From: Candidatus Lokiarchaeum ossiferum
GTDB lineage: Archaea > Asgardarchaeota > Lokiarchaeia > Sigyniarchaeales > Promethearchaeaceae
Length of the DNA: 32,000 nt
Assembly: GCA_025839675.1 (NCBI GenBank)
Contig: CP104013.1
Location: 3,180,001 to 3,212,000, forward strand
Reading direction: 5' to 3'
Shown here: positions 9,257-30,637 of the stretch, in pieces
Layout of the letters: every line of letters begins with the position of its first letter
Numbering within the stretch: position 1 is the first letter of the stretch
Notes under the pieces: model-generated
What the model saw: the letters and a program-made list of their open reading frames with translations, nothing else
Database searches by the model: none
What the model was told of the DNA's origin: nothing
Translations under genes and position numbers: made by a program

Positions 9257-9550
9257 AAAAAAATTAGTTGTTTTCTTTGGATGAAAGTCCGACATATACC
9301 AGTAAAAGAATGATTAATCCAGCACTGAATAATTGTAATATCAATTTATAATTATCCATAGACCAATTAGATAATTGCATAGGTAAAAAGACCATGAATT
9401 AAAAGAAAGATCGAATAAATAAAAAAAAATTGGTACAAAATTAAGCTAACATTCTGTAGAGCTAAAAAACTCGCAATAATAGCCAATAGAAATTTTATTA
9501 CAAAAAGTTTATTACTAATTTAAAAAAAGAAATTTGAAAAATGCTAAAAG

Positions 9551-9623
9551 TGGACCTAGGGGAATTTGAATCCCCGACCCCCTGAGTGCAAGTCAGGTGC
9601 TCTACCAACTGAGCCATAGGCCC
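9551..9623 (-). tRNA. tRNA-Ala (anticodon UGC)
   Basis: The minus strand reads GGGCCTA-TG-GCTC-AGTTGGTA-GAGC-A-CCTGA-CTTGCAC-TCAGG-GGGTC-GGGGA-TTCAAAT-TCCCC-TAGGTCC-A (73 nt). It carries the G3:U70 alanine identity pair. CCA is not encoded, and CTTTT follows. Confidence 0.95.
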
Positions 9624-9675
9624 TATTGAAAATAAAATTAAAAATACAAAAATTATTACAGTTCTCTAAAGAGAA

Positions 9676-9700
9676 AAGTAGGGTCGTTATGACCCTACTT
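9676..9700 (-). other. perfect 10-bp hairpin immediately 3' of 16S, followed by a U-rich tract
   Basis: On the plus strand, AAGTAGGGTC (9676-9685) and GACCCTACTT (9691-9700) are exact reverse complements around a 5-nt loop. In the RNA sense the hairpin is followed by TTTCTCTTT and, further on, by T5, T5 and T4 runs before the tRNA. Confidence 0.6.
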
Positions 9701-9708
9701 AATGGTGT

Positions 9709-11203
<1,495 letters not shown>

Positions 11204-11762: not shown

Positions 11763-12764
11763 ATAAAGCTCCTTGAACAAGTAAAACTTAACTTAGATAA
11801 AATCAAAAACACTAAGGGGGTAGAGAATGTTGTACTAACCCAACGAGATGGCAATCCTATCCAACATTCTGGAATTTGGCTCTCCAAAGATGAAATCTTC
11901 AGCATTTCTGCAGCCACTTCAGCAATATTTAATTGTGGAATTCATCTTCATGACGACAATCTGAAATATATTTTAATAGAGGGAAAGAAAGCTAAGGTAC
12001 TGCTTTCTCCTTTGATGAATTATGGAGGTGAAACATTAAGGAAAATTATTGAAGCTCAAGGACTTCAGGGAAATAATAATGAATTTTTTCTCGCAATTAC
12101 GACACAACAGATGATAAACCTAGGAAGTATATTTCTAAAAACTCGGAACAACATTATAGACATAAAAAAGTCATTGATTTTATCCGGAGAATCTTTTATC
12201 CCCCCTCTTAGACATTTTTCTGAAAAGAAAATTAATGATATGTTTGATTCAATTGATGTTAAGGAAAATTTATCATACAATGATTCAATTGCTTATTTTT
12301 CATTCAATATTTCTAAAGAATTGAATCAAAACTTGACTAATGTCTTAAAAGAATTTTCAAATCATACATTGGATCTAATTGATGCATTTATTACTTATGA
12401 AGGAGGATTTGTAATTGCTGAAAAAATCAATCCAAATATTATGGAATTGATGGATATTGATGCAAAAGCCACAATGAGTTATTCTTTATTTTCGACGGCA
12501 GACAAATGTGCATGGCTTTTGAAAAAAATGCATATAGAATCGATTTTGTTAGAATGCAAGGAATGTTTTCAATTTATAAATAAAGTTGGCAATGGGATCT
12601 TTTCTACAACTATTGCTAAAGGTCGACAAAAATTGGGATTACTAAGATTAATCATACCGAGATATTGTAAAAAAATTGTGGGGATTCTCCAAAATATTAA
12701 TCTCGAAAGTAATTCAGCTAAAATTCCATCATTTCAAGATCTTTTTTCAGAATTAATTATTTAA
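11763..12764 (+). CDS. tandem Roadblock/LC7 (MglB-like) domain protein; N-terminus lacks a canonical start codon
   Basis: The ORF track starts this gene at TTG 12012, but the frame is open from 11757, after TGA 11754-11756. The extra 85 codons encode a textbook Roadblock N-terminus (KLLEQVKLNLDKIKNTKGVENVVLTQRDGNPIQHSGIWLSKDEIFSISAATSAIFNCG...ILIEGKKAKVLLSP). A second Roadblock-like domain lies at ...IDAFITYEGGFVIAEKI...AKATMSYSLFSTADKCAWLL. An SD-like GGTGAT at 11752-11757 sits 5 nt upstream of ATA 11763. Confidence 0.7.
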   Translation: MKLLEQVKLNLDKIKNTKGVENVVLTQRDGNPIQHSGIWLSKDEIFSISAATSAIFNCGIHLHDDNLKYILIEGKKAKVLLSPLMNYGGETLRKIIEAQGLQGNNNEFFLAITTQQMINLGSIFLKTRNNIIDIKKSLILSGESFIPPLRHFSEKKINDMFDSIDVKENLSYNDSIAYFSFNISKELNQNLTNVLKEFSNHTLDLIDAFITYEGGFVIAEKINPNIMELMDIDAKATMSYSLFSTADKCAWLLKKMHIESILLECKECFQFINKVGNGIFSTTIAKGRQKLGLLRLIIPRYCKKIVGILQNINLESNSAKIPSFQDLFSELII

Positions 12765-12780
12765 AAGGAGAGAATATTGA

Positions 12781-13680
12781 TTGAACATAATTGAAATATT
12801 GTCATCTTCAAACATTGAAGAGGTGTCCTTAATTTTTCAAAGCTTATTAAATCGCACTCCAATTTTAATAATAGGTTCAGATGAGTTTATCGTAGAAGAA
12901 CTGATTAATTCCCTAACTAGTTTCATGCCTTTTAGAAATATATTGATATTTTTTGATGATTTTATTCATAATGACGATTATCAGGCACTGATTGAAAATG
13001 AAGAAGTTGATATTGAAACAGAAAGAAATCTTTTTATTTCCTTTCCCAATTCTGTTAACAAGGTCATTAATCTCACTGAAATCTTTTTTTCATGGATAGT
13101 TGGATGCACTGATAATGAAAGAAATCGAAAAGTAAATGAAATAATATGGAATAAATTCTATATCAATCATGATTTTTTTTTAAAAATAGATATCACAGAC
13201 AATAAAATAAAGGCAGAAGTGATAGGTAGGAAATTTCACCCATTAGATTTAACATTTGAAAGATGGTTATTTCAGAATGCAATAAATCGAACTGAAATTT
13301 CCATAGAAAAAATGAAAAGAGTGATTGCAAAAAGCTATAAAAAAAGCAAGATTTCAGAAGCTGATTTAGAAGAACTTATGGATTTTTCGTTTGAAGAATT
13401 AGAGTTAAAAGAAAATATCTTAAAAAAAGAGATCATTAATTTTTTCCAGGCATGTAAAAGAACTTTTAGTGTGCTAAATAGATTAAAAAATATAGAATCT
13501 TTCGGTTTCTCTACTAAAATTTCAACAAGGACAATTTATTCAACAATAGCCTATAAGTTTTCTTCTATTGGGAGAATTTTAGAATTTATTGAAAAAAATT
13601 GGAAAATAAATTTTTTTACACTTCTTGATGCGAAAAAGACATCAAATTTTACTGATACATTTGAAAGTTTATGGGGATAA
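12781..13680 (+). CDS. hypothetical protein (299 aa), middle gene of the GTPase operon
   Basis: TTG start directly follows an in-frame TGA, with GGAG 10 nt upstream. The N-terminal alpha/beta region is ...LLNRTPILIIGSDEFIVEELINSLTSFMPF..., and the C-terminal half is helical and charged. I recognise no named family. Confidence 0.6.
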   Translation: MNIIEILSSSNIEEVSLIFQSLLNRTPILIIGSDEFIVEELINSLTSFMPFRNILIFFDDFIHNDDYQALIENEEVDIETERNLFISFPNSVNKVINLTEIFFSWIVGCTDNERNRKVNEIIWNKFYINHDFFLKIDITDNKIKAEVIGRKFHPLDLTFERWLFQNAINRTEISIEKMKRVIAKSYKKSKISEADLEELMDFSFEELELKENILKKEIINFFQACKRTFSVLNRLKNIESFGFSTKISTRTIYSTIAYKFSSIGRILEFIEKNWKINFFTLLDAKKTSNFTDTFESLWG

Positions 13681-13682
13681 AA

Positions 13683-14258
13683 ATGATTGTTAACTATAAT
13701 GAAAAAAAAATTCAAATCAAAATCGTTTATTATGGCTGTGCCCTCTCAGGAAAAACAACCAGTCTAAAAAGTTTATTTTCAGGCTATGGTAGAAATGATT
13801 TGTTAACTTCGATTGAAACTACAACTGGACGTACACTTTTCTTCGATTTTGGAACACTTCAAATTAAAGGAGGAGAATGGACAGTAAAAATTTCACTCTA
13901 CTCAGCCACAGGTCAAGATTTTTATGCTTCAACTAGACCCGCCACATTATCTGGAGCAGATGGAATAGTATTTATCATAGATTCACAAAAGAAATATCTA
14001 TCGGATAATATTTCTTCATGGAATGAATTGAACAGATATTATCAAAACAGTCTAAATAATATGCCCTTAATTGTTTGTTTAAATAAGCAGGATCTCCCAG
14101 AATTATTGGATACGGATGTAATAATTAAAAATCTTAACCTAAATAGCTACAATAAAGTAGAAATAATTAAAACGATTGCATCAAGGGCAGAAGATGTGCT
14201 TCAAGCTTTTAAAAGGATGTTAGCTCAAATATTTCCGAAAATAACTATCAAGAGTTGA
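13683..14258 (+). CDS. mglA: MglA-family small Ras-like GTPase
   Basis: MIVNYNEKKIQIKIVYYGCALSGKTT aligns with MglA [27 protein letters not shown]. It has GRTLFFDF (switch I Arg), SATGQ (a G3 lacking Asp, as in MglA TVPGQ) and NKQD (G4). The track start at 13671 is in frame, but ATG 13683 matches the family N-terminus and lies 2 nt after the upstream stop. Confidence 0.85.
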   Translation: MIVNYNEKKIQIKIVYYGCALSGKTTSLKSLFSGYGRNDLLTSIETTTGRTLFFDFGTLQIKGGEWTVKISLYSATGQDFYASTRPATLSGADGIVFIIDSQKKYLSDNISSWNELNRYYQNSLNNMPLIVCLNKQDLPELLDTDVIIKNLNLNSYNKVEIIKTIASRAEDVLQAFKRMLAQIFPKITIKS

Positions 14259-16398: not shown

Positions 16399-17421
16399 AT
16401 GAACAATACATATAAAATTGAGAATTATAAAATCTGTCCTGAATGTCATGGAAGTGTTATTAAAAATCTCCACGAGAATGTTTGTGTCGAATGTGGGTTA
16501 ATAATAAACGATTTACAATTGATGGATAGTTACCAATATAACGAAATAAAGAATACTGATTTATCTGCAGGAGATCAATTCGTTTCAATAGGAAAGACGA
16601 TCGACAATGTTTGCACTTTAGGTAGCCATATAGGATATTACTCAAGTAATTCTTTTTTTGATCACAGAAATATGATATTACCTTCTGCTCAACAAAAAAA
16701 GTTTCGTAAATTAAAAAAACAATATTCTTTACCGATTAAAATAAAAAATCATGAAACAGATTATAGAATACTTGGCATTTTAAACAGAATAACTCAGTAT
16801 ATGAATTTATCAGATAATGTTAAAAATCGTAGTGCCTATTTTTATCAATCCATAAAAAAAAAAGCAACCAACATTAGAAATCATGTATCATTAATCGCAT
16901 TTTGTATATATTATTCATCTCGAGAATTTTCACAGAATGCTCCAATCAGTATTAAAGAAATTTGTAAGGTTTTTACAATTATGGGCCATAGAATCAATCC
17001 AAAATTAATTATTAGAGATAGCATCACCTATAAATGCTTTATTATGAAAAATGAAAAAATAAATCGACCTCATAAAAGTGAAGACTATATTAATAGGTTT
17101 GTAAATTCAATAGTTAATTCTTCTGAAATATGTGTTCGGATGAAGAAAAAAGGGATTTCATGGACAAAGGAAGAATATAAAAGAAAATTAGAAACAAAAT
17201 GCAACTCAACACTTAAATTACTCGATCTGAATGTTCGAAGAGCAAGAAATCCATTTATTTTAGCGGGAGCAGTAATATATTGTGCTGATAAATTGATTGC
17301 AAAAGAAAATAATACAAAAACAATTTTAACCCAAAAATCAGCGTCAAATGCAATGGAAATAGCAGAATATTCAATTAGAGATCATTACGTGAAGATTCTA
17401 AAGCCCATTTTTTTCCCTTAA
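16399..17421 (+). CDS. tfb: transcription initiation factor IIB (TFB)
   Basis: It has an N-terminal zinc ribbon (CPECHGS...CVECGLII), then two cyclin-like helical repeats (...SLIAFCIYYSSRE..., ...FILAGAVIYCADKL...). The protein is 340 aa. Confidence 0.8.
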   Translation: MNNTYKIENYKICPECHGSVIKNLHENVCVECGLIINDLQLMDSYQYNEIKNTDLSAGDQFVSIGKTIDNVCTLGSHIGYYSSNSFFDHRNMILPSAQQKKFRKLKKQYSLPIKIKNHETDYRILGILNRITQYMNLSDNVKNRSAYFYQSIKKKATNIRNHVSLIAFCIYYSSREFSQNAPISIKEICKVFTIMGHRINPKLIIRDSITYKCFIMKNEKINRPHKSEDYINRFVNSIVNSSEICVRMKKKGISWTKEEYKRKLETKCNSTLKLLDLNVRRARNPFILAGAVIYCADKLIAKENNTKTILTQKSASNAMEIAEYSIRDHYVKILKPIFFP

Positions 17422-19780: not shown

Positions 19781-22700
19781 TTGAAAAAATTTTTGATGAA
19801 AAAAAAAATTTTTTTCTACATCTTATTACTCACAATATTAATCAAAAATTTTGAAATGGTAGATGCATGGATATTCCCAGCTCCTCCTGCAATTATGACA
19901 GATAAGCCATGTTACTTTCCAGATGAAAATATCAATATCACAGCTGAATGGAATCTTTATTGTGATAATAATTCAATTTTTGAGATAAAAATTTTATTTT
20001 TAGAGAACCAGCCAAATAGTTATAGTTCATTAAATACCATGTTTTCAAGTAGCTTGACAACCATACCAATTCCAACCAATGATTCATCGCTACACGATTT
20101 TGAACAAGTTTCTTATTTCACAACAGTTCTAAATTCATCAGAATTATTCAATCTTTCATTTGAGAATACAAAAGAAATTTGGGTCACATTAATCTTCTAT
20201 TTATGGATTGGAGGAGAAATAAATGCTGCTTCATTAATAAAAACATTTTGCGAAATTAGTTTACAAAAATATGAACCATCCTTTCAAAATTCATTGTCCA
20301 ATTATAGCTTCGAGATAGGGGATAACTATCTATTAAATAATACGATTTTAGCATCTGAAAATAGCAAAAAAATGTATCCTACTAAGGAAGTATTGTGTAT
20401 TATTACCAATGAAATCACATGTTTATCAAAAAATATGAGTTCATTAATCCAAGATGGCCAATTAACGCTTAATATCTCAAAATTTGGACAATTATCGGTT
20501 GGAACTTATAATATTACATTTATTCTAGACTTTACCAAATTCTTTTGTAATTCAAATTTAACATTAATTATGAATATCAAGGCAAAATATGTTGAGATAT
20601 CTTCCTTAAACAGTACCAATATCCCGATGTCGTATGATATAAAATTTTTCTTTGATTTTCAACTATTAGATCAATGGGGAAAATCGTTTATAATTGAGAA
20701 TTTCACTTGGTTATTCAATAGTGATTTAAATTGGAGCGAGTGTGAAATATTAGAAGATTTTTATCGTATTTATTTTGAATTTCCAAAAATCGAAGGTGAA
20801 TATTATATTAATCTAAGTTTAGATAATTTCGAATATAACGTCCAATCTTACAGTAAATATTTCCATTTCTATAAAGAGGAAGTTGATTTAAATTTGTACT
20901 TAAGAAATATCACTTTAAATCAAGAAATATCATTTTTAGTTGAGGAAAATTTGGGTTTTTCCTTGGAAAGCATAGAAAAATCCAATTTAAACTTGGAATT
21001 CTTTGATGGGGATATTTGGATATCTATCGACTATAATATTATTGAAAAATATCCATCTATTATGAAAATTGTAACTTCATGGTCTATTTTTGAAAATTTT
21101 CCTCAGTTTTTACAAAATTCGTATTTTTATTCCCGAATAACGTTTCTTGGTAATGAAGTACTGCTTTCTGCAACTTCTAATATACTTACGATTAACCTCC
21201 CAATAATTAATTTTACTGTCAACTCAACATCAATCATTCTGGGACAAAAAATTCAGTTTCTTTTTGAGAATTATAGCATTTACCATCCAGAATCATATTT
21301 TTGGGATTTTGGGGATGGAATAGGATATTCCACAGAAATAAATCCTGTTTATCAATATTTATTCCCTGGAAATTACTCAATTACTTTGACAACATTGAAT
21401 TTTGAGGGTTATAATAATACATTTAATAGAGTTGGTTATATATTGGTAGATGAGGATAGAATACCTTTAGCAAAATTTGAAATCAGTCAAAATTTAACTA
21501 TTCAAAATGAAACCATTGATTTCATATTTACTGGTGATGAAGGAAATGGACCTTGTACGTATTTATGGGATTTTGGAGATGGTTTTTCTTCAAATGAAAA
21601 AAATCCAACGCATAGGTACAATACACAGGGCAATTATTCTATTTCCTTAACTATAATTGACTGTAATCACGATTCAAGCCAAATTATTAAAAATGATCTA
21701 GTTGGAATATTATTCGACGAACTGCCAATTGCAAATTTTTGGTTCAAAAATGAAATTTTAATAATTAACCAAGAAATCCTGTTTTTTTATAATGGGACGA
21801 TTGGTAATGGAAATGAAACATATCTATGGAATTTTGGGGATGGAACATTTTCAATGGAAAAAAATCCAGTTAAAACTTATAATAATACGGGAAGTTATTC
21901 AATTAGTGTTGAAGTTACAGATTGTGATGGAGATACAGATCTAATTATTCAAAATGAGATAATTAATATTGAAACAGACATATTTCCTATTGCAGATTTT
22001 AATAGTTCAAACCAATCATTTTTGACAAATGAAGAAATCTTCTTTTTTTTTAATGGAACAGAAGGAAATGGTGTGAATTTATTTGAATGGAATATCGGGA
22101 ATTTAATTTTTCATGAAAGAAATCCGATAGTCGTTTTCAATGCCTCTGGATCTTATTCAATCAGATTAAGTATCATTGATTCCAACGGAGATAAAGATTC
22201 TATACAAAAAGACAACTTTATTATTATTTTAGAAGACTTGGTTCCAGAAGTTGATTTTTTTTGTCCAATAAAACAAATAGTTGCAAATGAGGATGTTCAA
22301 TTTTTTTACAATGGAACAATTGGTAATGGAAATGAAACTTATATGTGGAATTTTGGGGATGGAACATTTTCTACGGAAAAAAATCCTGTAAAATGCTATA
22401 ATAATATTGGAATTTTTTCAATTAGGGTTGAAATTACAGATTCTGATGGAGATACAATGTTTTTACAAAAAGATGACTTTATAATTATTTTAGAAGACTT
22501 TCTTCCAGTAGCGGATTTCTATTGTTTACAAAATAAAATTATAGGTGGAGAAGAAGTTCAATTCTTTTATAATGGGACAATGGGAAATGAAAAAATGACT
22601 TACTCTTGGGAATTTGGAGATAATACATCCAGTAATGAAGAAAATCCAAAAAAAAGGTATTCAATTCCTGGAAACTACACAATTAAACTTAAAGTGACTG

Positions 22701-23920
22701 ATTTCGATGGGGATATAAATTTCAAACTATTATCAAATTATATTGAAGTTTTACCAGACTATTTTCCAGAAGCAGAATTTAATTATTCACAAAATACAAG
22801 TATCGCTGGAGAAAGTATTCAATTCATGTTTACTGGAAGTTTAGGAAATGGGAATCTTACTTACTATTGGAAATTTGGAGAGCATCTTAGTTCATCCTTA
22901 TCAAATCCGATTATTTCGTTTGAATATCCAGGGATTTATTCTGTTTTTTTACAAATCATGGATGAAGATGGAGATATTGGAACATTGACAAAAGAAAACG
23001 TGGTGAACATTATTCCTGATATTCATCCTAAATCGAATTTTACTTGTTCACAAAATACAAGTATCGCTGGGGAAAGTATTCAATTCACATTTACTGGAAG
23101 CTTAGGTAATGGAAATCTTTCCTATTATTGGAAATTTGGAGAACATCTTAATTCGTCCTTACCAAATCCGATTGTTTCTTTTGAATATCCAGGGATTTAT
23201 TCTGTTTTTTTACAAATCATGGATGAAGATGGAGATATTGGAACATTGACAAAAGAAAACGTGGTGAACATTATTCCTGATATTCATCCTAAATCGAATT
23301 TTACTTGTTCACAAAATACAAGTATCGCTGGAGAAAGTATTCAATTCACATTTACTGGAAGCTTAGGTAATGGAAATCTTTCCTATTATTGGAAATTTGG
23401 AGAACACCTTAATTCGTCCTTACAAAATCCGATTGTTTCTTTTGAACATCCGGGAGAGTATTCCATATCATTGTTTATTTCTGATATCGATGGAGATATA
23501 GATTATTTAACTAAAAAGAATTCTATAAATATTTATCCCGATCTAAAACCTATTGCACACTTCTATTTTAATAGTTCATCATTTGTCACTGGGAAGGGCA
23601 TCCAGTTTTATTTTAATGGAACAAATGGTAATGGAAATATAACTTGGACCTGGAATTTTGGGGATGGGAGCATTTCTAAAGAAATTAATCCTATTAAACA
23701 ATATGAAAAACCAGGAAATTATGTTGTTTCTATTATTGTTGTAGATGATGATGGAGACAAAGATATTTTTAGTTTAAATATAGATATCAAAAGAGATAAT
23801 TGGATTGAAATCTTTCCGTTTTCGATAATAACGAGCGTTATTGGAACAATTTCAATTCTTACCAGAAAATATTGGAAGAAAAAAATTAAATTGGTTGCTC
23901 TAAATTCAATTAAGATTTAA
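19781..23920 (+). CDS. large cell-surface protein: signal peptide, ~490-aa unknown N-terminal region, 10 PKD domains, C-terminal TM anchor
   Basis: The N-terminus KKKIFFYILLLTILIKNFEMVDA is signal-like. There are ten W-x-F-G-[DE] PKD cores (YFWDFGDG, YLWDFGDG, YLWNFGDG, FEWNIGN, YMWNFGDG, YSWEFGDN, 3x YYWKFGEH, WTWNFGDG). Many N-x-S/T sequons are present. The C-terminus IFPFSIITSVIGTISILTRKYWKKK is a TM helix plus a basic tail. The start is TTG 19781 or ATG 19796. Confidence 0.85.
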   Translation: MKKFLMKKKIFFYILLLTILIKNFEMVDAWIFPAPPAIMTDKPCYFPDENINITAEWNLYCDNNSIFEIKILFLENQPNSYSSLNTMFSSSLTTIPIPTNDSSLHDFEQVSYFTTVLNSSELFNLSFENTKEIWVTLIFYLWIGGEINAASLIKTFCEISLQKYEPSFQNSLSNYSFEIGDNYLLNNTILASENSKKMYPTKEVLCIITNEITCLSKNMSSLIQDGQLTLNISKFGQLSVGTYNITFILDFTKFFCNSNLTLIMNIKAKYVEISSLNSTNIPMSYDIKFFFDFQLLDQWGKSFIIENFTWLFNSDLNWSECEILEDFYRIYFEFPKIEGEYYINLSLDNFEYNVQSYSKYFHFYKEEVDLNLYLRNITLNQEISFLVEENLGFSLESIEKSNLNLEFFDGDIWISIDYNIIEKYPSIMKIVTSWSIFENFPQFLQNSYFYSRITFLGNEVLLSATSNILTINLPIINFTVNSTSIILGQKIQFLFENYSIYHPESYFWDFGDGIGYSTEINPVYQYLFPGNYSITLTTLNFEGYNNTFNRVGYILVDEDRIPLAKFEISQNLTIQNETIDFIFTGDEGNGPCTYLWDFGDGFSSNEKNPTHRYNTQGNYSISLTIIDCNHDSSQIIKNDLVGILFDELPIANFWFKNEILIINQEILFFYNGTIGNGNETYLWNFGDGTFSMEKNPVKTYNNTGSYSISVEVTDCDGDTDLIIQNEIINIETDIFPIADFNSSNQSFLTNEEIFFFFNGTEGNGVNLFEWNIGNLIFHERNPIVVFNASGSYSIRLSIIDSNGDKDSIQKDNFIIILEDLVPEVDFFCPIKQIVANEDVQFFYNGTIGNGNETYMWNFGDGTFSTEKNPVKCYNNIGIFSIRVEITDSDGDTMFLQKDDFIIILEDFLPVADFYCLQNKIIGGEEVQFFYNGTMGNEKMTYSWEFGDNTSSNEENPKKRYSIPGNYTIKLKVTDFDGDINFKLLSNYIEVLPDYFPEAEFNYSQNTSIAGESIQFMFTGSLGNGNLTYYWKFGEHLSSSLSNPIISFEYPGIYSVFLQIMDEDGDIGTLTKENVVNIIPDIHPKSNFTCSQNTSIAGESIQFTFTGSLGNGNLSYYWKFGEHLNSSLPNPIVSFEYPGIYSVFLQIMDEDGDIGTLTKENVVNIIPDIHPKSNFTCSQNTSIAGESIQFTFTGSLGNGNLSYYWKFGEHLNSSLQNPIVSFEHPGEYSISLFISDIDGDIDYLTKKNSINIYPDLKPIAHFYFNSSSFVTGKGIQFYFNGTNGNGNITWTWNFGDGSISKEINPIKQYEKPGNYVVSIIVVDDDGDKDIFSLNIDIKRDNWIEIFPFSIITSVIGTISILTRKYWKKKIKLVALNSIKI
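22788..23462 (+). repeat. 261-bp (87-codon) tandem repeat, about 2.6 copies, inside the PKD gene
   Basis: CACAAAATACAAGTATCGCTGG recurs at 22788, 23049 and 23310. Positions 22921-23070 are 100% identical to 23182-23331 (150 nt). Positions 23072-23146 are identical to 23333-23407. Confidence 0.95.
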
Positions 23921-24192
23921 TTTAGAAAAAAAGAACGTTTATGGACTTTTTACCCGCTTTTTTGTATCATATAGATTGAGATATCCGACTTTTCGGGAGT
24001 CTCTTGCAGTTTCTCGACAAACTAAATGCAAATTTTTCCCTTTCTTCAAGGATCTTAGTCGTTTCAATTCAAGGAAAACAAAATCTCAGGAAAATGCACC
24101 TTCATCGTTTTGATTACCAAATCCGTTTCTATTCTAAGATTCTGATTTTCATCAATTTCTTACCTTGTTCGAGATTAAGAAGCGAAGTTTCT

Positions 24193-24210
24193 CATTGTTA
24201 AGTAACAATG
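24193..24210. promoter_or_regulatory. perfect 8+2+8 palindrome upstream of the pilin gene (candidate operator)
   Basis: CATTGTTA-AG-TAACAATG lies about 90 nt upstream of the pilin ATG. Its dyad symmetry fits a dimeric HTH or wHTH binder. Confidence 0.35.
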
Positions 24211-24270
24211 TAAATCTCAAAATCCTAAACGTAAGTCTAATAATAGATGATGTTTAAAAAATTTCGACAT

Positions 24271-24280
24271 TTTAATATAA
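24271..24280 (+). promoter_or_regulatory. putative TATA box of the pilus operon (leaderless-type spacing)
   Basis: TTTAATATAA is centred about 24 nt upstream of ATG 24299, and there is no SD in between. Confidence 0.4.
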
Positions 24281-24298
24281 AAAAAGATAAAAACAATA

Positions 24299-24499
24299 AT
24301 GAAAATTTTGAGAAAAATAAAAAATAAGATTCATTTACTTCTAAAAGATGAAAAAGGAGGGTCAATGCTCGAATCAGGTTTACTGATTGCATTAAGTTTG
24401 ATTCTATTTCTTATGTTAATAGGAATTGTAGGGAATGTTTATGATTGGATTGAGATTAAATTTTCTGAAGTGCTGAATTTTTTTGACTCTCCAATATGA
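24299..24499 (+). CDS. Flp-like type IV pilin precursor (class III signal peptide), 66 aa
   Basis: The n-region is basic (MKILRKIKNKIHLLLKDEKG). It is followed by G-SMLE-SGLLIALSLILFLMLIGIV. This fits the G/xxxxE cleavage motif with Glu at +5 of the predicted mature end and a hydrophobic helix. The mature size would be about 45 aa, as in Flp pilins. Confidence 0.7.
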   Translation: MKILRKIKNKIHLLLKDEKGGSMLESGLLIALSLILFLMLIGIVGNVYDWIEIKFSEVLNFFDSPI

Positions 24500-24568
24500 T
24501 GATAAATCGAAAAATCATCAGACACATGTTATTTTTGTTGGCTGCCGACAAATTTCATATCAATTACT

Positions 24569-25795
24569 TTGAGCAATTGGGGAACAACTTTGAACAAAAA
24601 TTACCTAGAACAACAATTTTATTGCAAGGATTTATTTATTAATGAAGAATATCTCGATATAAATTATCTTCCAGAAGACATCTTGCACAGAGAACAAGAA
24701 TTAATAATTTTATCAAAAATTTTCATTAAATTAATAGAAAATCCTTTTAAAATAACAAGAAAATTGTTAATTCAAGGGGATGTGGGAATTGGAAAAACAG
24801 CGATAGCGCGTACTTTTGGAATAATGTTGAAAAGAAGTGCGAAAAAACGAAATATAAAAATTGAAGTTGTACATATTAATTGCAGAAAAGAAAGAACACA
24901 TTTTAAAATACTTCAACAAATTTTATTGACACTATCGTATCCAGTTCCTAAAAGAGGTTTCTCTCCTCAAGAATTAATGACTATACTACAAGAATATCTT
25001 GAAAAGAATAAAATATATTTATTCTTAGTATTGGATGAAATGAATCATATACAGAGCTCAGATTATGATTTGATATACGCTTTAACTAGATTAAATGATA
25101 CTACAGGAAAAGATTCTTCGTTTCTCTCTTTATTATATATTGTTCGGGATATCACCCTTTTAAGAAATTTAGACGAATCAACCATCAGCACATTACAAGG
25201 AAATATTCTTTCTCTAAAAAAATATAATAAAATGCAAATAAATGATATTTTAGAAGAGAGAATTAATAAATCAATTCAAAAAGGAGTATTTCCATCTAAA
25301 TTGACTATGATAATATCTGAAAAAATCGAAGATTCAGGAGATATTAGAAAGGGATTAAACATAGTGAGAAATGCAGTTAAAATAGCAGAAATCAAAGATA
25401 AAACAATAGTATCTTATGACGAAATTCACCAAGCGATCAAAAATCTAATCCCAAGTCTACAGGATGATGCTTTGGGAATATTAAATATGCATCAAACAAT
25501 TATACTTTTTTCAATTACTACATACTTCATAGAAAATAAGGAAAAAAGAATTACACTAAATCAACTTAATCCTTATTATTTGAATACTTGTAAAAAATAT
25601 GACCAATTGCCCAGAAAAAGCACTCAAATATGGCAAAATTTACAACAATTACGAAATTTGAATCTCATCAAAATTGTAACTATTTCTAAAAATATGAAAG
25701 GAAGGAAATCTTTTTGTTCAATTAATGATATACCCCTGAACATTTTAAATGAAGAATTGAATCAAAAACTGAAAAATTTTTACTGTGGTAGGTGA
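24569..25795 (+). CDS. cdc6: Orc1/Cdc6 family AAA+ protein
   Basis: It has ...LDINYLPEDILHREQELIILSKIF, Walker A GDVGIGKT and Walker B LVLDEMNHI. The C-terminal winged helix is ...QNLQQLRNLNLIKIVTISKNMKGRKSF. The start is TTG and the protein is 408 aa. Confidence 0.85.
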   Translation: MSNWGTTLNKNYLEQQFYCKDLFINEEYLDINYLPEDILHREQELIILSKIFIKLIENPFKITRKLLIQGDVGIGKTAIARTFGIMLKRSAKKRNIKIEVVHINCRKERTHFKILQQILLTLSYPVPKRGFSPQELMTILQEYLEKNKIYLFLVLDEMNHIQSSDYDLIYALTRLNDTTGKDSSFLSLLYIVRDITLLRNLDESTISTLQGNILSLKKYNKMQINDILEERINKSIQKGVFPSKLTMIISEKIEDSGDIRKGLNIVRNAVKIAEIKDKTIVSYDEIHQAIKNLIPSLQDDALGILNMHQTIILFSITTYFIENKEKRITLNQLNPYYLNTCKKYDQLPRKSTQIWQNLQQLRNLNLIKIVTISKNMKGRKSFCSINDIPLNILNEELNQKLKNFYCGR

Positions 25796-25798
25796 AAT

Positions 25799-26104
25799 AT
25801 GCTGATTGTAAAAAAAATGGTAAATACAGGTTTGTTTGAAGAAATTTTTTCCTCGAAAGGAAGAGCGAAGATAGTTAAGATCTTGGCATTAAGAAATGAA
25901 ATGAATATTTCAAAAATTATTTCCTTAGCAGGCACAAGCCATTCAAGTGCTGAATACCATCTGAATTTCTTAAAAACAATAGAATTTGTTAGAGAAAAAA
26001 AATTTGGAAGAATTCGGATTTTTGAATATCAAAATGATAATTTAGACGCTAGAGCTCTAAAAAATTTAATTCTATTTTGGGAACAAAAAAATGTGGAGTT
26101 ATGA
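25799..26104 (+). CDS. ArsR/SmtB-type winged-helix transcriptional regulator
   Basis: IFSSKGRAKIVKILALRNEMNISKIISLAGTSHSSAEYHLNFLKTIEFVREKKFGRIRIFEY is the typical archaeal wHTH pattern. The gene starts 3 nt after the orc1 stop. Confidence 0.75.
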   Translation: MLIVKKMVNTGLFEEIFSSKGRAKIVKILALRNEMNISKIISLAGTSHSSAEYHLNFLKTIEFVREKKFGRIRIFEYQNDNLDARALKNLILFWEQKNVEL

Positions 26105-26561
26105 GAGCGAACAAATTTTATTGTTATCATATTTTCTATTATTAGTAATAATTTCCATAGAAGATTGTGTTTTTGGAAAAATATTTAACTTTACAATTAT
26201 ATGGGGAATTCTCCTTCGAATTTTCTTTTTTTTTTCTTATAATGAAAAAATCACACCTTCAATTGGAAAAATGTTTCAAAATTTTATTATTGTTATTATT
26301 TTTTTCATATTGTGGAATAAAAACATAATCGGTGGTGGAGATTTAAAGACGATTTTACTTTTCTTATTTTATATCTCTGCACATTCTAACAAACATACGA
26401 TAATATTCCCATATCAACTATTTGATAGAGTTCAATTTTTCATTTCTTTTTTTATGATAATATTTTTCTCAAAATTAATTCAAAAAAAAAAAAAACACTC
26501 TCCAATTTTCAAATTGGGGCCAATTTTTTTAATTTCAATGTCTATTGCAATTTTATTTTAA
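26091..26561 (+). CDS. short prepilin peptidase (A24 aspartic protease, TadV/CpaA/FlaK-like)
   Basis: The protein is polytopic and hydrophobic. The first catalytic Asp lies in ...IISIEDCVFGKI, and the second lies in the signature IIGGGDLK. It overlaps the wHTH gene by 14 nt. Confidence 0.7.
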   Translation: MWSYESEQILLLSYFLLLVIISIEDCVFGKIFNFTIIWGILLRIFFFFSYNEKITPSIGKMFQNFIIVIIFFILWNKNIIGGGDLKTILLFLFYISAHSNKHTIIFPYQLFDRVQFFISFFMIIFFSKLIQKKKKHSPIFKLGPIFLISMSIAILF

Positions 26562-26593
26562 TCGTTTTTTTTAAAGAATTTTAGAATGTAAGA

Positions 26594-28669
26594 GTGATGA
26601 AAAAATGCAAGAATAATTTAAATTCTTCCTTAAAGAATGAAATGGATCAAAGAATTTTAAGCCTGAATTGCTCTTCTTTTCCCAGTGACGATAAAAAATT
26701 GTGTTTAACTTGCATAGTTGATAAGTTACTGGAATTATCTAAAAAATCTTATGATGATATTCAAATAAATTGGAGAGTATTGGATAATTCCGAAACAAAG
26801 GTCTTGGTATACTTAAGTAACTTTCTAATTGATCTTCGTAAAAGAGATCTTAGTTCAAATTGTAAAATCGCACTTTTACAATGTCAATACAATAGCAAAC
26901 TAATTAATCCTTTAGAAAAAATAACAATTCAATCCATTTTCAGATGTTTAAAAAATGAAAACGTGCCAAATTCAAAAGATTTGCATGAAGAAGGATATAA
27001 TCTTGACAAAATATGTGAATCTTGCATAAAAAAACAATACAAAAAAAACAAATTAATTAATAAAATATATTGCAAATCAAAATTTGCCTCATTACTTGAA
27101 AAAAAATATGGATTATTTCATCCTTCCTTAGGAGATATAGTGAGAATATTACCTTCATTTTCTCTTATTAGTGTCGAAAATAACCTTAAGTCAAATTCTC
27201 ACATTTACAGTGAGATTGAACAATATAGTTTACACAAAAATATATTTTTAGTTAAAATTTTTAAAATTGAAAATGAAATAGAAAACTTATATCAAGTTAC
27301 AAATTTGATATCACCCTCACTTAGTCAAAAATTAGATTTTTTCAAAAAATTCTTCAAAACGAAGTTATCAAGCCTTAAATTCCAGTATTTCTCGAATTTA
27401 GCCGAAAAAATTGATCATATTGAGATCCAATTAAAATCTTCATTCAAGAATTTTTTTCCTGAAATTAGAGTAGATGAAATTACAAAATTAAGTCTGATCC
27501 TAGCGTTAAAATACTTGAAAGTTGAAAAATTATTTCCTCTTTTAGTCGACCCGTTTATCGAAGAAATATTTCTTGATTCCGCTGAAGCATTTATTTATTT
27601 AAACCATCAAAAATTTGGGAGATGTATTACCAAATTATGTATAAATGAAATTGAGATAGAAGCTTTAAAAACCCATCTTAGGTTTGAAAGTGAAAAAAGA
27701 TTGGATGAAAAATCCCCCAGCTTAATCCATTCTATAAATAATAAATACTTCCACTGTAGATTTTCAATTGATATATTTCCATCACATTGGAAAAATTTTT
27801 CATTTGACATTAGAAAAATGAATAAAAATATTTATTCAATAATCGATCTTATAAGTTTGAACACCTTAAGCGTAAGAATGGCTAGTTTTTTAATTTTTTG
27901 TATCATAAATAGAATAAATATCACAATTGCGGGTGAAGTTAACTCAGGGAAGACAACATTACTTAATTCTATTGATCTAATGATTCCGAAAAATTTCCGT
28001 AAAATATATGTTGAAGAAACATTGGAGAGCTTAGAAATACCAATAAGTCAAAATCACCAATTAAAATATGTAGTTGAGTCCGATTTAGACGGAATAAACA
28101 GAGGAAAAGAAAAAGAAATATATAAATTGCTCCACCGTTCAGGAGATATAATTATTTTGGGAGAGATTCTTAACAAATCAGAATCTGATGCATTATTTCA
28201 TTGTTTGAGTGCAGGATTGAAAGGTATTCAGACAACTCATGCTTCATCAATTCAAGGATTAATTAATCGATGGATAGTTCATTTTAATATTGATAAAAGT
28301 TGTTTTAATGATCTTGGAATAATTGTTTTGATGAAGAAAATAGGACAACAGAGAAAAATCCTGTCCATTTGTGAAACTATATATAACAGAAGAGAAGATT
28401 CGCTACACATAAATGACTTCTTTAAATATTTCCCTAATTCTAATAAATGGAAACAAATTATTCCATTCACAGATTCAAATCTTTTCAAGAAATTGAATAG
28501 TTATTTAAATCTCACAGATTATAAATACCAGAATATTATCAATACTATCGAAGATGCTCTATATCAATTAATCCAGAAATCTAAAGAAACGAAAAAATCT
28601 AAATTTAACTTAGCACAAGGAATTTTAAAATCTTTGAATGAAATTGAACCTATGATTGGAGGTAATTAA
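26594..28669 (+). CDS. type II/IV secretion-family ATPase (FlaI/TadA/VirB11-like) with long N-terminal extension
   Basis: Walker A is ITIAGEVNSGKTT, at about residue 450. Walker B is DIIILGEI, and the His-box is GIQTTHASS. The protein is 691 aa. ATG 26597 is the probable start. Confidence 0.85.
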   Translation: MMKKCKNNLNSSLKNEMDQRILSLNCSSFPSDDKKLCLTCIVDKLLELSKKSYDDIQINWRVLDNSETKVLVYLSNFLIDLRKRDLSSNCKIALLQCQYNSKLINPLEKITIQSIFRCLKNENVPNSKDLHEEGYNLDKICESCIKKQYKKNKLINKIYCKSKFASLLEKKYGLFHPSLGDIVRILPSFSLISVENNLKSNSHIYSEIEQYSLHKNIFLVKIFKIENEIENLYQVTNLISPSLSQKLDFFKKFFKTKLSSLKFQYFSNLAEKIDHIEIQLKSSFKNFFPEIRVDEITKLSLILALKYLKVEKLFPLLVDPFIEEIFLDSAEAFIYLNHQKFGRCITKLCINEIEIEALKTHLRFESEKRLDEKSPSLIHSINNKYFHCRFSIDIFPSHWKNFSFDIRKMNKNIYSIIDLISLNTLSVRMASFLIFCIINRINITIAGEVNSGKTTLLNSIDLMIPKNFRKIYVEETLESLEIPISQNHQLKYVVESDLDGINRGKEKEIYKLLHRSGDIIILGEILNKSESDALFHCLSAGLKGIQTTHASSIQGLINRWIVHFNIDKSCFNDLGIIVLMKKIGQQRKILSICETIYNRREDSLHINDFFKYFPNSNKWKQIIPFTDSNLFKKLNSYLNLTDYKYQNIINTIEDALYQLIQKSKETKKSKFNLAQGILKSLNEIEPMIGGN

Positions 28670-29096
28670 GATCAATCAAATTTTGGATAAGATGCTATTA
28701 ATGGTATTTGGTTTAATTTCCATCCTAGTTTTTGCACCAATATTATTTTTTTTTTTGGAAAATAATTTTTCTACAATATCAGTTGAAAATACAGTAGAAT
28801 TAGAACAGATTGATTCTGATATATTAAATTTGGCAGAAAATTTTAAAATTTTTCAGGAAGACAATAACGAATCTCAGATATTTTATTTTGAATTCCAAGG
28901 AGTGATTACTGTCTTTTACGAAAATTTGAATAATTTAACTACGTTATATTTGAATTTTTATTACAACGAAACAAAATCTCCGATCTTTAGGCATTTAATT
29001 TTCAACAACGAACTAAATATTACAATTAATTCATACCAGATTAACCAATATTTCTTCCTTAAAGAAAAAAATGTGATTTCACTAATTTTTTCTTAA
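28656..29096 (+). CDS. small membrane-anchored protein of the filament locus (FlaF/FlaG-like topology)
   Basis: A single N-terminal TM helix (MLLMVFGLISILVFAPILFFFL) is followed by a beta-rich region of about 110 aa. It overlaps the ATPase stop, with GGAGGT at 28658-28663. There is no recognisable [KR]G cleavage motif. Confidence 0.5.
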   Translation: MEVIKINQILDKMLLMVFGLISILVFAPILFFFLENNFSTISVENTVELEQIDSDILNLAENFKIFQEDNNESQIFYFEFQGVITVFYENLNNLTTLYLNFYYNETKSPIFRHLIFNNELNITINSYQINQYFFLKEKNVISLIFS

Positions 29097-29110
29097 GGAG
29101 GTGCTAAATC

Positions 29111-30637
29111 ATGAATTTTTCGAAAATAATCAATGACACATATTTTCACTTATGTTCCAAACTCCCAAAAAAAAACAATTTTGAAAGCAAGCAAGAAATA
29201 GTTTATGAGGATATTATTAGAGTTGAATATAATTTAACAAAAAGTCAACAGATGCAAGGAGCTTATCTATTATCAATGGGATTTTTTATTGTTTTATGTA
29301 TAGCACATTATATTTGGCAATTTGACATGATTTATTTAATATTTTTGATATGTATCGGTTTTTTAATCTTCACTTACTTGAAAAACTATTTCAAGAATCA
29401 AATAAAGGTGAAGGAATATAGTTTAATAAATCATTTACAATTTTTGGTGGTCCAAATTAAGATATTTTTAAAAAATGTTTCAAAAACTAAAGATAGGGAA
29501 ATATTAATTTTAGAAATGTTGACTTACGGTCCAAAATTATCCCCAAATATAGATCAAGTTTATTATTCTCTTAGTTTAGGTAAAAATTCAAAAAAAAGTC
29601 TGGAAAAATTAATCTTTTACTCTCCTGCTTTTACCAAATTTTTCCAAACGATGATCAAATTCAATTTTGATGAAAAAATTGTATCAAAATTAGATGAATT
29701 TAATTCATCTTATGAAAAAAAAATAGAAATGTTTATACAATCTCTCGAGACAAGATTAAGTCTTTTCTTCTTTTTCTCGATTTTTTATCCAATTGGTGTC
29801 TTTTATTTTGCAGCAACATACCCAATTTCTTTTAAAACTATGTTAATGCTGGTTTTAATATATTATTTGGCACAAGAAATTATTTTAAAATATGTGCTGG
29901 ATAATCGAATACATTTGCTAGGCGATGTATCTAATTTGAAAAAAAAAAAAAAAAATGAATTTGAAACATTTTTAGACTTTTTCTTGATTTTAGGAAGAAA
30001 TTTAATCAATAGTTCTCCTGAAATTGCAATATTTGAAGCTTTTAAAAGCATAGGTCCGAAATCTCAAGAAATTTTAAAATTATCTAATTTTAATTTCTCT
30101 CTTGAATTTTTATCTCTTGAACATTTTTTAAATAAAATGTCTCAAACCTTGCAGAACAGTGAAATAAGTCAATTTTTAAATTTCTTGTTAAAACTTTTTA
30201 AAAATGATTCTTCACAAGGATATAATTTTTTAATTGATACTTTAATTCAAATTAATTCTCATAAAGTTCAAGTAAACAAGCAAGAAGTTGCTTTCAAAAA
30301 TGCCTATTCTAAGTCAAATTTATTCAAAATGCTTCTTGCTTTAATACTTGGCATATTAACTCCATTTATCATCAAATTTCAAGCAACGATAGTTGAATTT
30401 CAAAAAGTAGTAAACAGCTCACAAGATTTCTATTTTGAATACTCGACTTTAGCAATCAATCAATCGATATCTCTTGTATTAAGAGTAATTTCATTACTAT
30501 TTCTTATTATAAATATTACTTCTTTTAATCGTTTTTATATTAAACGATCTTTCAAAAAAATAGATTTTCTCGTAATTATTTTATACATTATTTTTAATCT
30601 AATTTCGAATATTTTGCTCCAAAATACAATCCTTTGA
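29111..30637 (+). CDS. polytopic membrane platform protein (FlaJ / fused TadB-TadC, T2SS-F-like)
   Basis: A strong SD (AAGGAGGTG) lies 7 nt upstream. The 508-aa protein has two clusters of TM helices separated by soluble helical segments. It sits immediately after the secretion ATPase, as in archaeal type IV filament loci. Confidence 0.65.
   Translation: MNFSKIINDTYFHLCSKLPKKNNFESKQEIVYEDIIRVEYNLTKSQQMQGAYLLSMGFFIVLCIAHYIWQFDMIYLIFLICIGFLIFTYLKNYFKNQIKVKEYSLINHLQFLVVQIKIFLKNVSKTKDREILILEMLTYGPKLSPNIDQVYYSLSLGKNSKKSLEKLIFYSPAFTKFFQTMIKFNFDEKIVSKLDEFNSSYEKKIEMFIQSLETRLSLFFFFSIFYPIGVFYFAATYPISFKTMLMLVLIYYLAQEIILKYVLDNRIHLLGDVSNLKKKKKNEFETFLDFFLILGRNLINSSPEIAIFEAFKSIGPKSQEILKLSNFNFSLEFLSLEHFLNKMSQTLQNSEISQFLNFLLKLFKNDSSQGYNFLIDTLIQINSHKVQVNKQEVAFKNAYSKSNLFKMLLALILGILTPFIIKFQATIVEFQKVVNSSQDFYFEYSTLAINQSISLVLRVISLLFLIINITSFNRFYIKRSFKKIDFLVIILYIIFNLISNILLQNTIL

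Follow-up and report, generated by a model that had tools for sequence, protein, structure and literature searches.

The stretch of DNA analyzed here (the window) comprises 32,000 nucleotides (nt) of contig CP104013.1 from Candidatus Lokiarchaeum ossiferum (assembly GCA_025839675.1, positions 3,180,001 to 3,212,000 of the forward strand) and represents ordinary chromosome of this archaeon with ~27% GC. Within it we investigated a cluster of seven genes on the plus strand, encoding in this order a Flp-like pilin, an Orc1/Cdc6 protein, an ArsR-type winged helix-turn-helix protein (wHTH), an A24 prepilin peptidase, a FlaI/GspE-type ATPase, a small membrane protein and a GspF/TadC-type platform protein (Table 1). 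The products other than Orc1 match locus tags NEF87_002710-002716 in UniProt. A Tad/Flp-like type IV filament locus thus encloses a homolog of replication initiators and a wHTH, and we tentatively propose that these two proteins may regulate the filament genes.

All seven open reading frames (ORFs) appear in the ORF list at the coordinates and on the strand given by an earlier inspection of the bare letters (the sequence-only reading), and the tight packing described there is confirmed: orc1 and the wHTH gene are separated by 3 nt, the wHTH and A24 genes overlap by 14 nt, the ATPase gene overlaps that of the small membrane protein by 14 nt, and a gap of 14 nt precedes the platform gene. Two boundaries had to be shifted. 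The locus had been taken to begin at 24193, a position that falls within a minus-strand gene for RNase P RNA, and the start of orc1 had been placed at the beginning of the longest ORF, which is probably wrong. Homology favors the TTG codon listed in Table 1, which yields the same protein length as the NCBI entry and an N-terminus (MNKNYLEQQ) that aligns with the orthologs, with GGGGAA located 5' of it.

The pilin, peptidase, ATPase and platform form a minimal filament machine with a Flp-sized pilin, and the gene identifications of the sequence-only reading hold. The pilin matches Pfam Flp_Fap weakly (E 0.05, under the cut-off) and is named 'Flagellin Flp1-like domain' in UniProt. Its leader is a Flp-type class III signal peptide (G/XXXXEY, then a hydrophobic helix; the slash marks the cleavage site) with the sequence ...DEKG/GSMLESGLLIALSLILF, kept in six related genera or species. 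The cleavage site is conserved in Lokiarchaeales as KG/GSMLESGLLIALSLILFLMLIG with Glu at +5, also given as KG/GSMLESGLLIALS, and the motif G/[GS]S[MT][LI]E[ST]GLLIALS lies directly 5' of orc1 in P. syntrophicum, Harpocratesius and four other metagenome-assembled genomes (MAGs). The pilin leader at locus L052 reads AG/SLLEYGLLIG.

The peptidase is borderline in Pfam (26.1 bits against a Peptidase_A24 cut-off of 26.5), and its longer orthologs match PF01478 without this borderline mark. Both catalytic Asp residues of a class III signal peptidase, D25 and D84 (GGGD, GxGD), are invariant in 13 orthologs. Many non-Lokiarchaeales genomes (L014, L018-L029 and others) carry two adjacent ORFs of ~68-85 and 110-145 amino acids (aa) for A24 right after the wHTH gene. 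Each half would hold one catalytic Asp region, and the pair could be a real split gene or the result of recurrent frameshifts.

The ATPase matches T2SSE (Pfam, E 2.2e-12), and its nearest solved relatives are A. fulgidus GspE2 (2OAP, 1e-21) and FlaI (3e-20), with CpaF more distant (3e-6). Walker A, Asp box and His box are conserved, as in the PilB/GspE/FlaI family. The N-terminal extension of ~200 aa, for which no family match was found, contains the residues C26, C37, C40, C90, C97, C141 and C144 that are conserved in at least 90% of 60 orthologs, and an eighth Cys about three residues past C26 occurs in at least 60% of them. This pattern in residues 1-150 (window 26594-27050) suggests two Cys4 metal sites. 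The Cys-rich region is encoded by a separate ORF of 111 aa in L052.

The small membrane protein has no family match in Pfam and NCBIfam scans, and it is kept between ATPase and platform in 51 loci with the N-terminal consensus MTNLxEKxLxIGFGI. A single-sequence AlphaFold2 (AF2) model of low confidence (predicted local distance difference test, pLDDT, 53.7), which can be read for architecture only, shows a helix at residues 2-38 and nine strands; the protein may be a pilin-like or FlaF/G-like accessory protein. The platform has neither a direct Pfam match nor, by profile search, a PDB match. Word-index homolog searches retrieved only 4-5 proteins, an exhaustive profile search with the family led to no more than 116 representatives, and the AF2 model (pLDDT 62.6) was too poor for Foldseek, which gave meaningless matches against the PDB. 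Its placement in the GspF/PilC/TadC/FlaJ (T2SSF) superfamily is transitive, because remote family members pass the Pfam T2SSF cut-off of 25.2, namely P0231 with 43.8 bits, which the family profile finds at E 9e-6, and P0226 with 25.8 bits. UniProt lists a GspF domain protein, and supplement 3 of PMC9834061 assigns the platform to arCOG01814 TadC. A word search of the L. ossiferum paper returned neither 'pili' nor 'archaell', only 'surface structures'; that a pilus is actually made from these genes is what we infer from their sequences.

Orc1 of the window and the Cdc6/Cdc18 protein listed by NCBI for L. ossiferum have identical sequences (100%), and Pfam finds the domains Cdc6_C, Cdc6_lid and AAA_22 in the protein. 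It passes TIGR02928 (219.6 bits, cut-off 181.3) and stays under the cut-off of the equivalog model NF001623 (258.5 against 311). A Pfam match to TniB reflects generic AAA+ similarity. Among 15 orthologs Walker A (GIGKT), Walker B (LDE), sensor-2 (GDIR) and the wing of the winged-helix (WH) domain (KGRK) are invariant, including the residues G73, G75, K76, T77, D156, E157, G257, D258, I259, R260, G378 and R379, and the alignment to 1FNN extends through the WH domain. The protein is complete and, judged by these motifs, apparently active. Its AAA+ part scores highest with Sso Orc1-1 (169.7 bits), followed by P. aerophilum Cdc6 (143), A. pernix ORC1 (140) and A. pernix ORC2 (111). For the WH domain the best match is P. 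aerophilum Cdc6 (80.8) before ORC2 (21), where the Orc1-1 WH sequences compared were truncated reconstructions.

The cdc6-PolD neighbourhood is the classic euryarchaeal origin context. It is another Cdc6 of the organism that lies in such a setting: in supplement 3 of PMC9834061, the neighbours of ORTHOMCL546 (K10725, cog.000771) are the small subunit of PolD and an RPA-like HTH protein. A third arCOG00467 member also appears in the orthogroup table of that paper, which contains the gene studied here as ORTHOMCL656 (cog.000439) in the order S17e, Cdc6, ArsR, FlaI, TadC, L23.

The wHTH passes the Pfam cut-off for HTH_5/ArsR (23.6 against 22), and the best match of its family profile among solved structures is CzrA (2.4e-6). 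The mean column identity in an alignment of 25 sequences is 63%, and this alignment has no conserved cluster of Cys or His besides the His of the recognition helix. With the NCBIfam metalloregulator model NF033788 the protein reaches 31.7 bits at a cut-off of 55.

To determine how far the arrangement extends, one genome per species was scanned, which gave 80 loci, and the window proteins were mapped on all loci with iterated hidden Markov models; the counts given here refer to 81 non-redundant Lokiarchaeia loci. The orc1 gene is followed by the wHTH gene in all 81, in the great majority with a stop/start overlap of 4 nt (ATGA or TTGA). A24 follows the wHTH gene in 73 of the 75 loci with enough downstream sequence and usually starts 1-4 nt past it. 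The neighbourhood comparison for the filament genes showed platform and ATPase both within 8 kb in 55 of 58 loci. The sequence-only reading had considered that relatives might carry the pilus genes without orc1 and the wHTH, leaving the arrangement unique to one assembly. This is clearly contradicted by the loci: orc1, wHTH and A24 occur together in essentially every Lokiarchaeia locus recovered.

The same cluster as in the window is found in P. syntrophicum MK-D1 and Harpocratesius, and more distant genomes have it in rearranged form. In the commonest layout Roadblock/Arf genes, the TFB-like gene, p27, S17e and a surface-protein gene precede orc1, wHTH and A24 on the plus strand; then follow a few small conserved genes, the platform, small membrane protein and ATPase genes on the minus strand, and L3, L4 and L23. 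The order shared by Lokiarchaeum, Promethearchaeum and Harpocratesius differs from this by an inverted ATPase module and by a Flp-like pilin gene immediately 5' of orc1. The co-directional seven-gene layout, real as it is in the window, is a derived state confined to a single order, the Lokiarchaeales. In most Lokiarchaeia loci no pilin gene was detected upstream of orc1, and the module of ATPase, small membrane protein and platform lies on the opposite strand. A third clade keeps the cluster with the ribosomal operon on the other side (L043, L052) and the Flp pilin beside the ATPase. The three clades differ in their flanks, yet orc1-wHTH-A24 stays with platform and ATPase.

MAGs labelled Thor, Hermod, Odin or Hod were considered as evidence for a wider distribution and rejected as such. 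Their L4, where present, is 70-85% identical to that of Loki_b32, and Orc1 in all of them is 62-79% identical, which places them in Lokiarchaeia; the distribution claimed here is therefore limited to this class. The JBHL... MAGs (L006, L023-L025, L029, L040, L055, L060, L080), deposited as Hodarchaeota, Hermodarchaeota, Thorarchaeota or Odinarchaeota, share the Loki synteny, and their record titles look like mislabels.

The non-coding DNA around orc1 was examined for origin signatures and regulatory motifs. The gap of 378 bp upstream of the pilin, a candidate for a regulatory region or an origin, turned out to be the RNase P RNA gene (23943-24225, minus strand, 34% GC). It was missed by the default scan because its score of 77.3 bits (E 9.5e-22) is just under the Rfam gathering cut-off of 84 bits; the RNA is strongly conserved with covariation (compensatory changes) in six Lokiarchaeales genomes, and it is also located upstream of orc1 in a second clade (L031, L043, L052). 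The spacer between pilin and orc1 measures ~90 nt, and no non-coding stretch above this length flanks orc1 in the window. A consensus similar to origin recognition boxes (ORB), TTCCANTGGAAA, has 32 matches at 28.5 expected and is not enriched, and a search for repeats around 23800-24700 gave nothing beyond chance. The combination that would mark an origin-linked initiator, namely an intergenic origin, repeated ORB elements and an AT-rich unwinding element, was not found in the window. The terminator hairpin predicted at 24534-24552 is not shared by relatives, which keep only its 3' arm.

Six Lokiarchaeales sequences carry the motif CCGACAAATTTC in the spacer without any change, other clades have a related motif, CCGACAAAATTC, conserved 5' of orc1, and the element CCGACAAAWTTC is conserved at this place class-wide in single copy. 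In 1.42 Mb of loci, 40 of the 90 occurrences of C[CG]GAC[AT][AT]A lie just 5' of orc1 on the orc1 strand. The CCGACAAAWTTC element is the first candidate for a binding site of Orc1 and the wHTH. Although CCGACAAATTTC contains AATTTC, this hexamer in a genome of 27% GC is no evidence of an Orc1-2-type (ANTTTC) site. A TATA-like block, TACTCTGTATTTTATTATAAAC, occurs at about -55 of orc1 in the non-Lokiarchaeales clades. A shared operator for the orc1 and pilus promoters was also considered and rejected: TACTCTGTA and CCGACAAA occur essentially only 5' of orc1.

Roughly 50 non-Lokiarchaeales loci (e.g. L018, 9725-10000) have a non-coding stretch of ~260 bp (250-285 bp) 5' of orc1 with the blocks CCGACAAAATTC and TACTCTGTATTTTATTATAAAC. 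No conserved ORF and no Rfam match was found in this stretch, and nhmmer detected no similarity to the RNase P RNA of Lokiarchaeales; it could be a promoter plus leader, a small RNA or an origin. In L052 ~430 bp of AT-rich DNA are located upstream of orc1.

Table 1. Features of the filament locus in the window, and features of related loci (own coordinates of each locus)
Feature	Position	Strand	Description
Membrane-anchored PKD-repeat surface protein	19781..23920	+	nine PKD_4 repeats (Pfam); conserved upstream neighbour
Flp-like prepilin	24299..24499	+	66 aa; predicted cleavage ...DEKG/GSMLES...
Conserved cis motif CCGACAAATTTC, candidate promoter element or operator	24545..24556	+	~35-45 nt 5' of orc1 start
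Orc1/Cdc6 paralog, asCOG cog.000439	24590..25795	+	401 aa from TTG 24590; longest ORF begins 24569
ArsR/SmtB-type winged-helix protein (wHTH)	25799..26104	+	101 aa; HTH_5
Short A24 class III signal (prepilin) peptidase	26091..26561	+	156 aa; Peptidase_A24, D25 and D84
FlaI/GspE2-type secretion ATPase	26594..28669	+	T2SSE; ~200-aa Cys-bearing N-terminal extension
Small membrane protein	28656..29096	+	N-terminal hydrophobic helix and beta-rich domain; no family match
Polytopic platform, GspF/TadC/FlaJ (T2SSF) superfamily	29111..30637	+	508 aa; membership through remote relatives
Locus without ATPase and/or platform at the expected place	L046 10979-12225		
Locus without ATPase and/or platform at the expected place	L073 11530-20513		
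Locus without ATPase and/or platform at the expected place	L025 14267-16113		
Small gene of common layout			102-aa helical protein; detected by sequence in 12 loci
Small gene of common layout			123-139-aa acidic protein ending WDPW; 123-aa and 162-aa genes conserved in 67-68 loci
Small gene of common layout		opposite	162-aa weak V4R/DUF2507-like protein; 123-aa and 162-aa genes conserved in 67-68 loci
Small gene of common layout			96-aa membrane protein; detected by sequence in 10 loci

The four small genes of the common layout lie between A24 and the platform (L005 10192-12029 and equivalents), and none of them was found in the window. Where filament genes are missing, the cluster of L046 runs straight into the L3 gene, and the region downstream in L073 consists of many short ORFs.

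Further genes of the window encode 16S rRNA, tRNAs, a thermosome subunit, an Arf-like GTPase, a TFB-like protein and the ribosomal proteins L23 and L4. The 16S rRNA gene (9550-11202, minus strand), without a linked 23S gene in the window, is followed by tRNA-Ala and, next downstream on the other strand, the gene of an Obg-like GTPase. Two uncharacterised proteins of 250 and 299 aa, Roadblock/LC7-like according to faint matches in relatives, are encoded together with an Arf-family small GTPase at 12012-14258 (plus strand), and in most Lokiarchaeia loci this set of three genes precedes the orc1 cluster by a constant distance. The TFB/TFIIB paralog (16399-17421, plus strand) is highly divergent, with one weak cyclin repeat and a score of 44 bits against a cut-off of 384 (NCBIfam TFB); it belongs to the conserved block and is located three genes upstream of orc1 in most loci. 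Its vicinity to orc1 recalls the pairing of Orc1-2 and TFB3 in Sulfolobales, and the adjacency may be mere synteny.

A surface-protein gene related to that of the PKD-repeat protein precedes orc1 in most loci. The protein in the window has 1379 aa and a C-terminal membrane anchor, and the last several of its nine repeats are nearly identical, which points to recent tandem duplication. Proteins at the orthologous position range from 355 to 1963 aa in relatives, so that a rapidly varying surface protein stands beside the pilus locus; its functional membership in the pilus system is uncertain.

Our preferred interpretation, to which we assign a probability of roughly 45%, is that a co-opted Orc1 paralog and the wHTH constitute a DNA-binding regulatory module for the pilus and prepilin-peptidase genes. 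Among the three explanations offered by the sequence-only reading, this co-option for filament control is the best supported one, and still an inference. It is favored by the overlap-type coupling of the genes, by the survival and tightening of the cluster through rearrangements, by the existence of a better-placed initiator paralog and by the precedent of Orc1-2 in Sulfolobales. Further arguments are that orc1 has no room for an origin beside it in the window, that the motifs of the protein are intact, and that a single-copy motif is specific to the region upstream of its gene.

In mechanistic terms, an ancient Lokiarchaeia operon would begin with three translationally coupled genes, for the Orc1/Cdc6 paralog, the ArsR-type wHTH (~97 aa) and the prepilin peptidase, and would adjoin the ATPase, small membrane protein and platform genes of the Tad/Flp-like type IV filament. 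Orc1, as an ATP-dependent sequence-specific DNA binder, and the wHTH would be produced in a fixed proportion and could bind promoter DNA, for which the CCGACAAAWTTC element is the first site to consider. Together they might switch transcription of the peptidase, pilin and assembly genes, and this could couple pilus production to the nucleotide, DNA or cell-cycle state sensed by Orc1-type AAA+ proteins. The DNA targets, the direction of regulation and the signal are presumed in this scheme. In Lokiarchaeales, inversion of the ATPase module and placement of a Flp-like pilin 5' of orc1 would have led to the one co-directional cluster of seven genes.

Several observations weigh against such a regulatory role. 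The AAA+ part of Orc1 resembles that of an initiator, Sso Orc1-1, more than that of A. pernix ORC2; the protein does not look like a member of the Orc1-2 clade, and we do not place it there. The motif upstream of orc1 was not found at the pilin and ATPase promoters, and TACTCTGTATTTTATTATAAAC does not recur there either, so that no shared operator links the units. Since the whole 20-kb neighbourhood is frozen class-wide, with Roadblock/Arf GTPases, TFB-like gene, p27, S17e, RNase P RNA and the L3/L4/L23 operon, adjacency is weak evidence for a functional link. Moreover, orc1-wHTH-A24 persists in L046 and L073, which lack both ATPase and platform, and in L025, which lacks the ATPase, and the pair therefore has some function independent of this machine.

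The main rival, which the sequence-only reading had not considered, is a genuine initiator, serving a primary or second origin from within a frozen housekeeping block, in which case co-transcription with the wHTH and the general-purpose peptidase would be hitch-hiking without meaning for the pilus and the wHTH might be a partner of Orc1 or an autoregulator. We regard this as rather unlikely. The protein is a full-length member of the orc1/cdc6 family by TIGR02928 with an AAA+ part closest to Sso Orc1-1 and P. aerophilum Cdc6, each of the 81 loci retains a single copy of its gene, next to genes for ribosomal proteins, RNase P RNA and S17e, and this gene persists after loss of ATPase and platform. 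The uniform stretch of ~260 bp with conserved blocks in the non-Lokiarchaeales, and its longer AT-rich counterpart in L052, would offer space for an origin, and genomes of 4-6 Mb could plausibly use several. However, in the window orc1 is flanked by no non-coding region above ~90 nt, no repeated ORB-like elements were found, the conserved upstream blocks are single-copy and one of them resembles a TATA promoter, and it is another Cdc6 that occupies the canonical context next to PolD. We further know of no archaeal origin neighbourhood in which comparable stop/start overlaps join the initiator gene to a transcription-factor-type wHTH and a pilin peptidase.

A more far-reaching form of the regulatory idea, which we hold to be clearly improbable, is that Orc1 with its coupled wHTH is a checkpoint that reads the state of DNA or replication and directly licenses filament assembly for cell-cell contact or DNA exchange. 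It would be the Asgard counterpart, hard-wired in cis, of the Sulfolobales response leading from Orc1-2 to Ups and Ced. The sequence-only reading had also suggested a filament for DNA uptake or transfer; Orc1 and the wHTH would then be its DNA-binding or DNA-loading parts instead of regulators. Type IV filaments do include competence pili, Sulfolobales couple Ups pili to the Ced importer under Orc1-2, which is an analogy only, and Orc1 with its intact motifs would be an ATP-dependent DNA binder. We found no evidence supporting this idea and consider it very unlikely: the cluster amounts to a minimal set of Tad/Flp type, its conserved part contains no Ced-like, ComEC-like, nuclease or translocase genes, and family scans, which are not dedicated predictors of transmembrane segments or signal peptides, gave no membrane or signal-sequence domain match for Orc1 or the wHTH. 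The last proposal, that the pair is left from the replication module of a mobile element once integrated into a pilus operon, could draw on the frequency of orc1/cdc6 on archaeal plasmids and integrated elements (282 plasmid records have distant matches) and on the single Pfam match to TniB, generic as that similarity is. Vertical synteny of the locus beside the ribosomal-protein operon throughout the class, together with the absence of closely related plasmid or phage genes, effectively excludes this proposal. All 81 loci, from three Lokiarchaeia clades, show an unchanged position and order, the GC content equals that of the surroundings, no integrase, att repeats or tRNA target are present, and the best plasmid matches, haloarchaeal orc genes, reach at most 25% identity, with no phage match.

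Lokiarchaeia are close archaeal relatives of eukaryotes and include the first cultured Asgard archaea, and almost nothing is known about how they make filaments, contact partners or control replication. Nearly every genome sampled carries a divergent Tad/Flp-like set, in contrast to a census that calls type IV filament systems rare or minimal in Asgard. The class-wide coupling of Orc1 and peptidase leads to the testable hypothesis that initiator paralogs act as transcription factors outside Sulfolobales, for which two small soluble proteins and one conserved DNA motif are offered as candidate reagents and targets. It also flags which Loki Cdc6 paralog should not be taken as a marker of origins. 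If the checkpoint idea were true, moonlighting of an initiator as a transcription factor would predate or parallel the regulatory roles of eukaryotic ORC/Cdc6, and it would also be relevant to syntrophic contacts between cells of the lineage closest to eukaryotes.

With regard to published work, the sequence-only reading had not recognised the gene order as a described archaeal pilus layout, and open-access papers and bioRxiv likewise yielded no report of an archaeal type IV filament locus that contains an Orc1/Cdc6-ArsR pair. A census of archaeal type IV pilus loci from 2016 (PMC4858521) mentions neither Orc, Cdc6 nor Loki, and a 2026 preprint on archaeal type IV filaments reports only core components in Asgard, where such systems are rare or minimal, without mention of Orc1. 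The arrangement is real, conserved and apparently undescribed.

The closest functional parallel is the DNA-damage regulon of Sulfolobales under Orc1-2 and TFB3 (Ups, Ced), in which an Orc1/Cdc6 paralog with intact AAA+ and WH domains is a transcription factor for pilus genes (PMC6061795). Sulfolobus Orc1-2 does not serve as an initiator and instead recognizes ANTTTC in the promoters of upsA, upsE, tfb3 and cedA1 and activates type IV pilus and DNA-import genes (PMC6061795; PMC13584746). As in Sulfolobales, the Loki paralog is tied genomically to type IV filament genes, and a divergent TFB paralog lies in the same conserved block. Unlike there, where orc1-2 is distant from ups and ced and acts in trans, the Loki gene is translationally coupled to those of the wHTH and the prepilin peptidase. 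The Loki protein, known from its sequence, is not demonstrably of the Orc1-2 clade and is closer to Orc1-1 in its AAA+ part. The wHTH shares the winged-helix fold family of the ArsR/SmtB metalloregulators CzrA and SmtB, whereas its invariant residues, as we read the alignment, form no obvious metal-site pattern.

The archaeal orc1/cdc6 genes adjacent to oriC (cdc6-PolD at the Pyrococcus oriC, orc1-1 at the Sulfolobus oriC1) belong to the same family with the same domain set, and the Loki gene has a position conserved class-wide; it differs in the window by the absence of an adjacent large intergenic region and of ORB repeats, and the paralog linked to PolD is a different one. With bacterial Tad/Flp and archaeal Epd-like or Tad-like filaments the locus shares the short Flp-type pilin (G/XXXXE), the FlaI/CpaF-related ATPase and the TadC/GspF-type platform, and the A24 peptidase is short like TadV/CpaA, with no added domain detected. 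In contrast to these systems, the Loki platform is one protein of 508 aa, divergent enough for Pfam to miss, the ATPase carries its Cys-rich N-terminal extension of ~200 aa, and Orc1/Cdc6 and ArsR genes reside inside the locus. The arrangement thus varies what is already known, a filament locus of the Tad/Flp type on the one hand and, on the other, an Orc1 paralog that probably has a role other than initiation.

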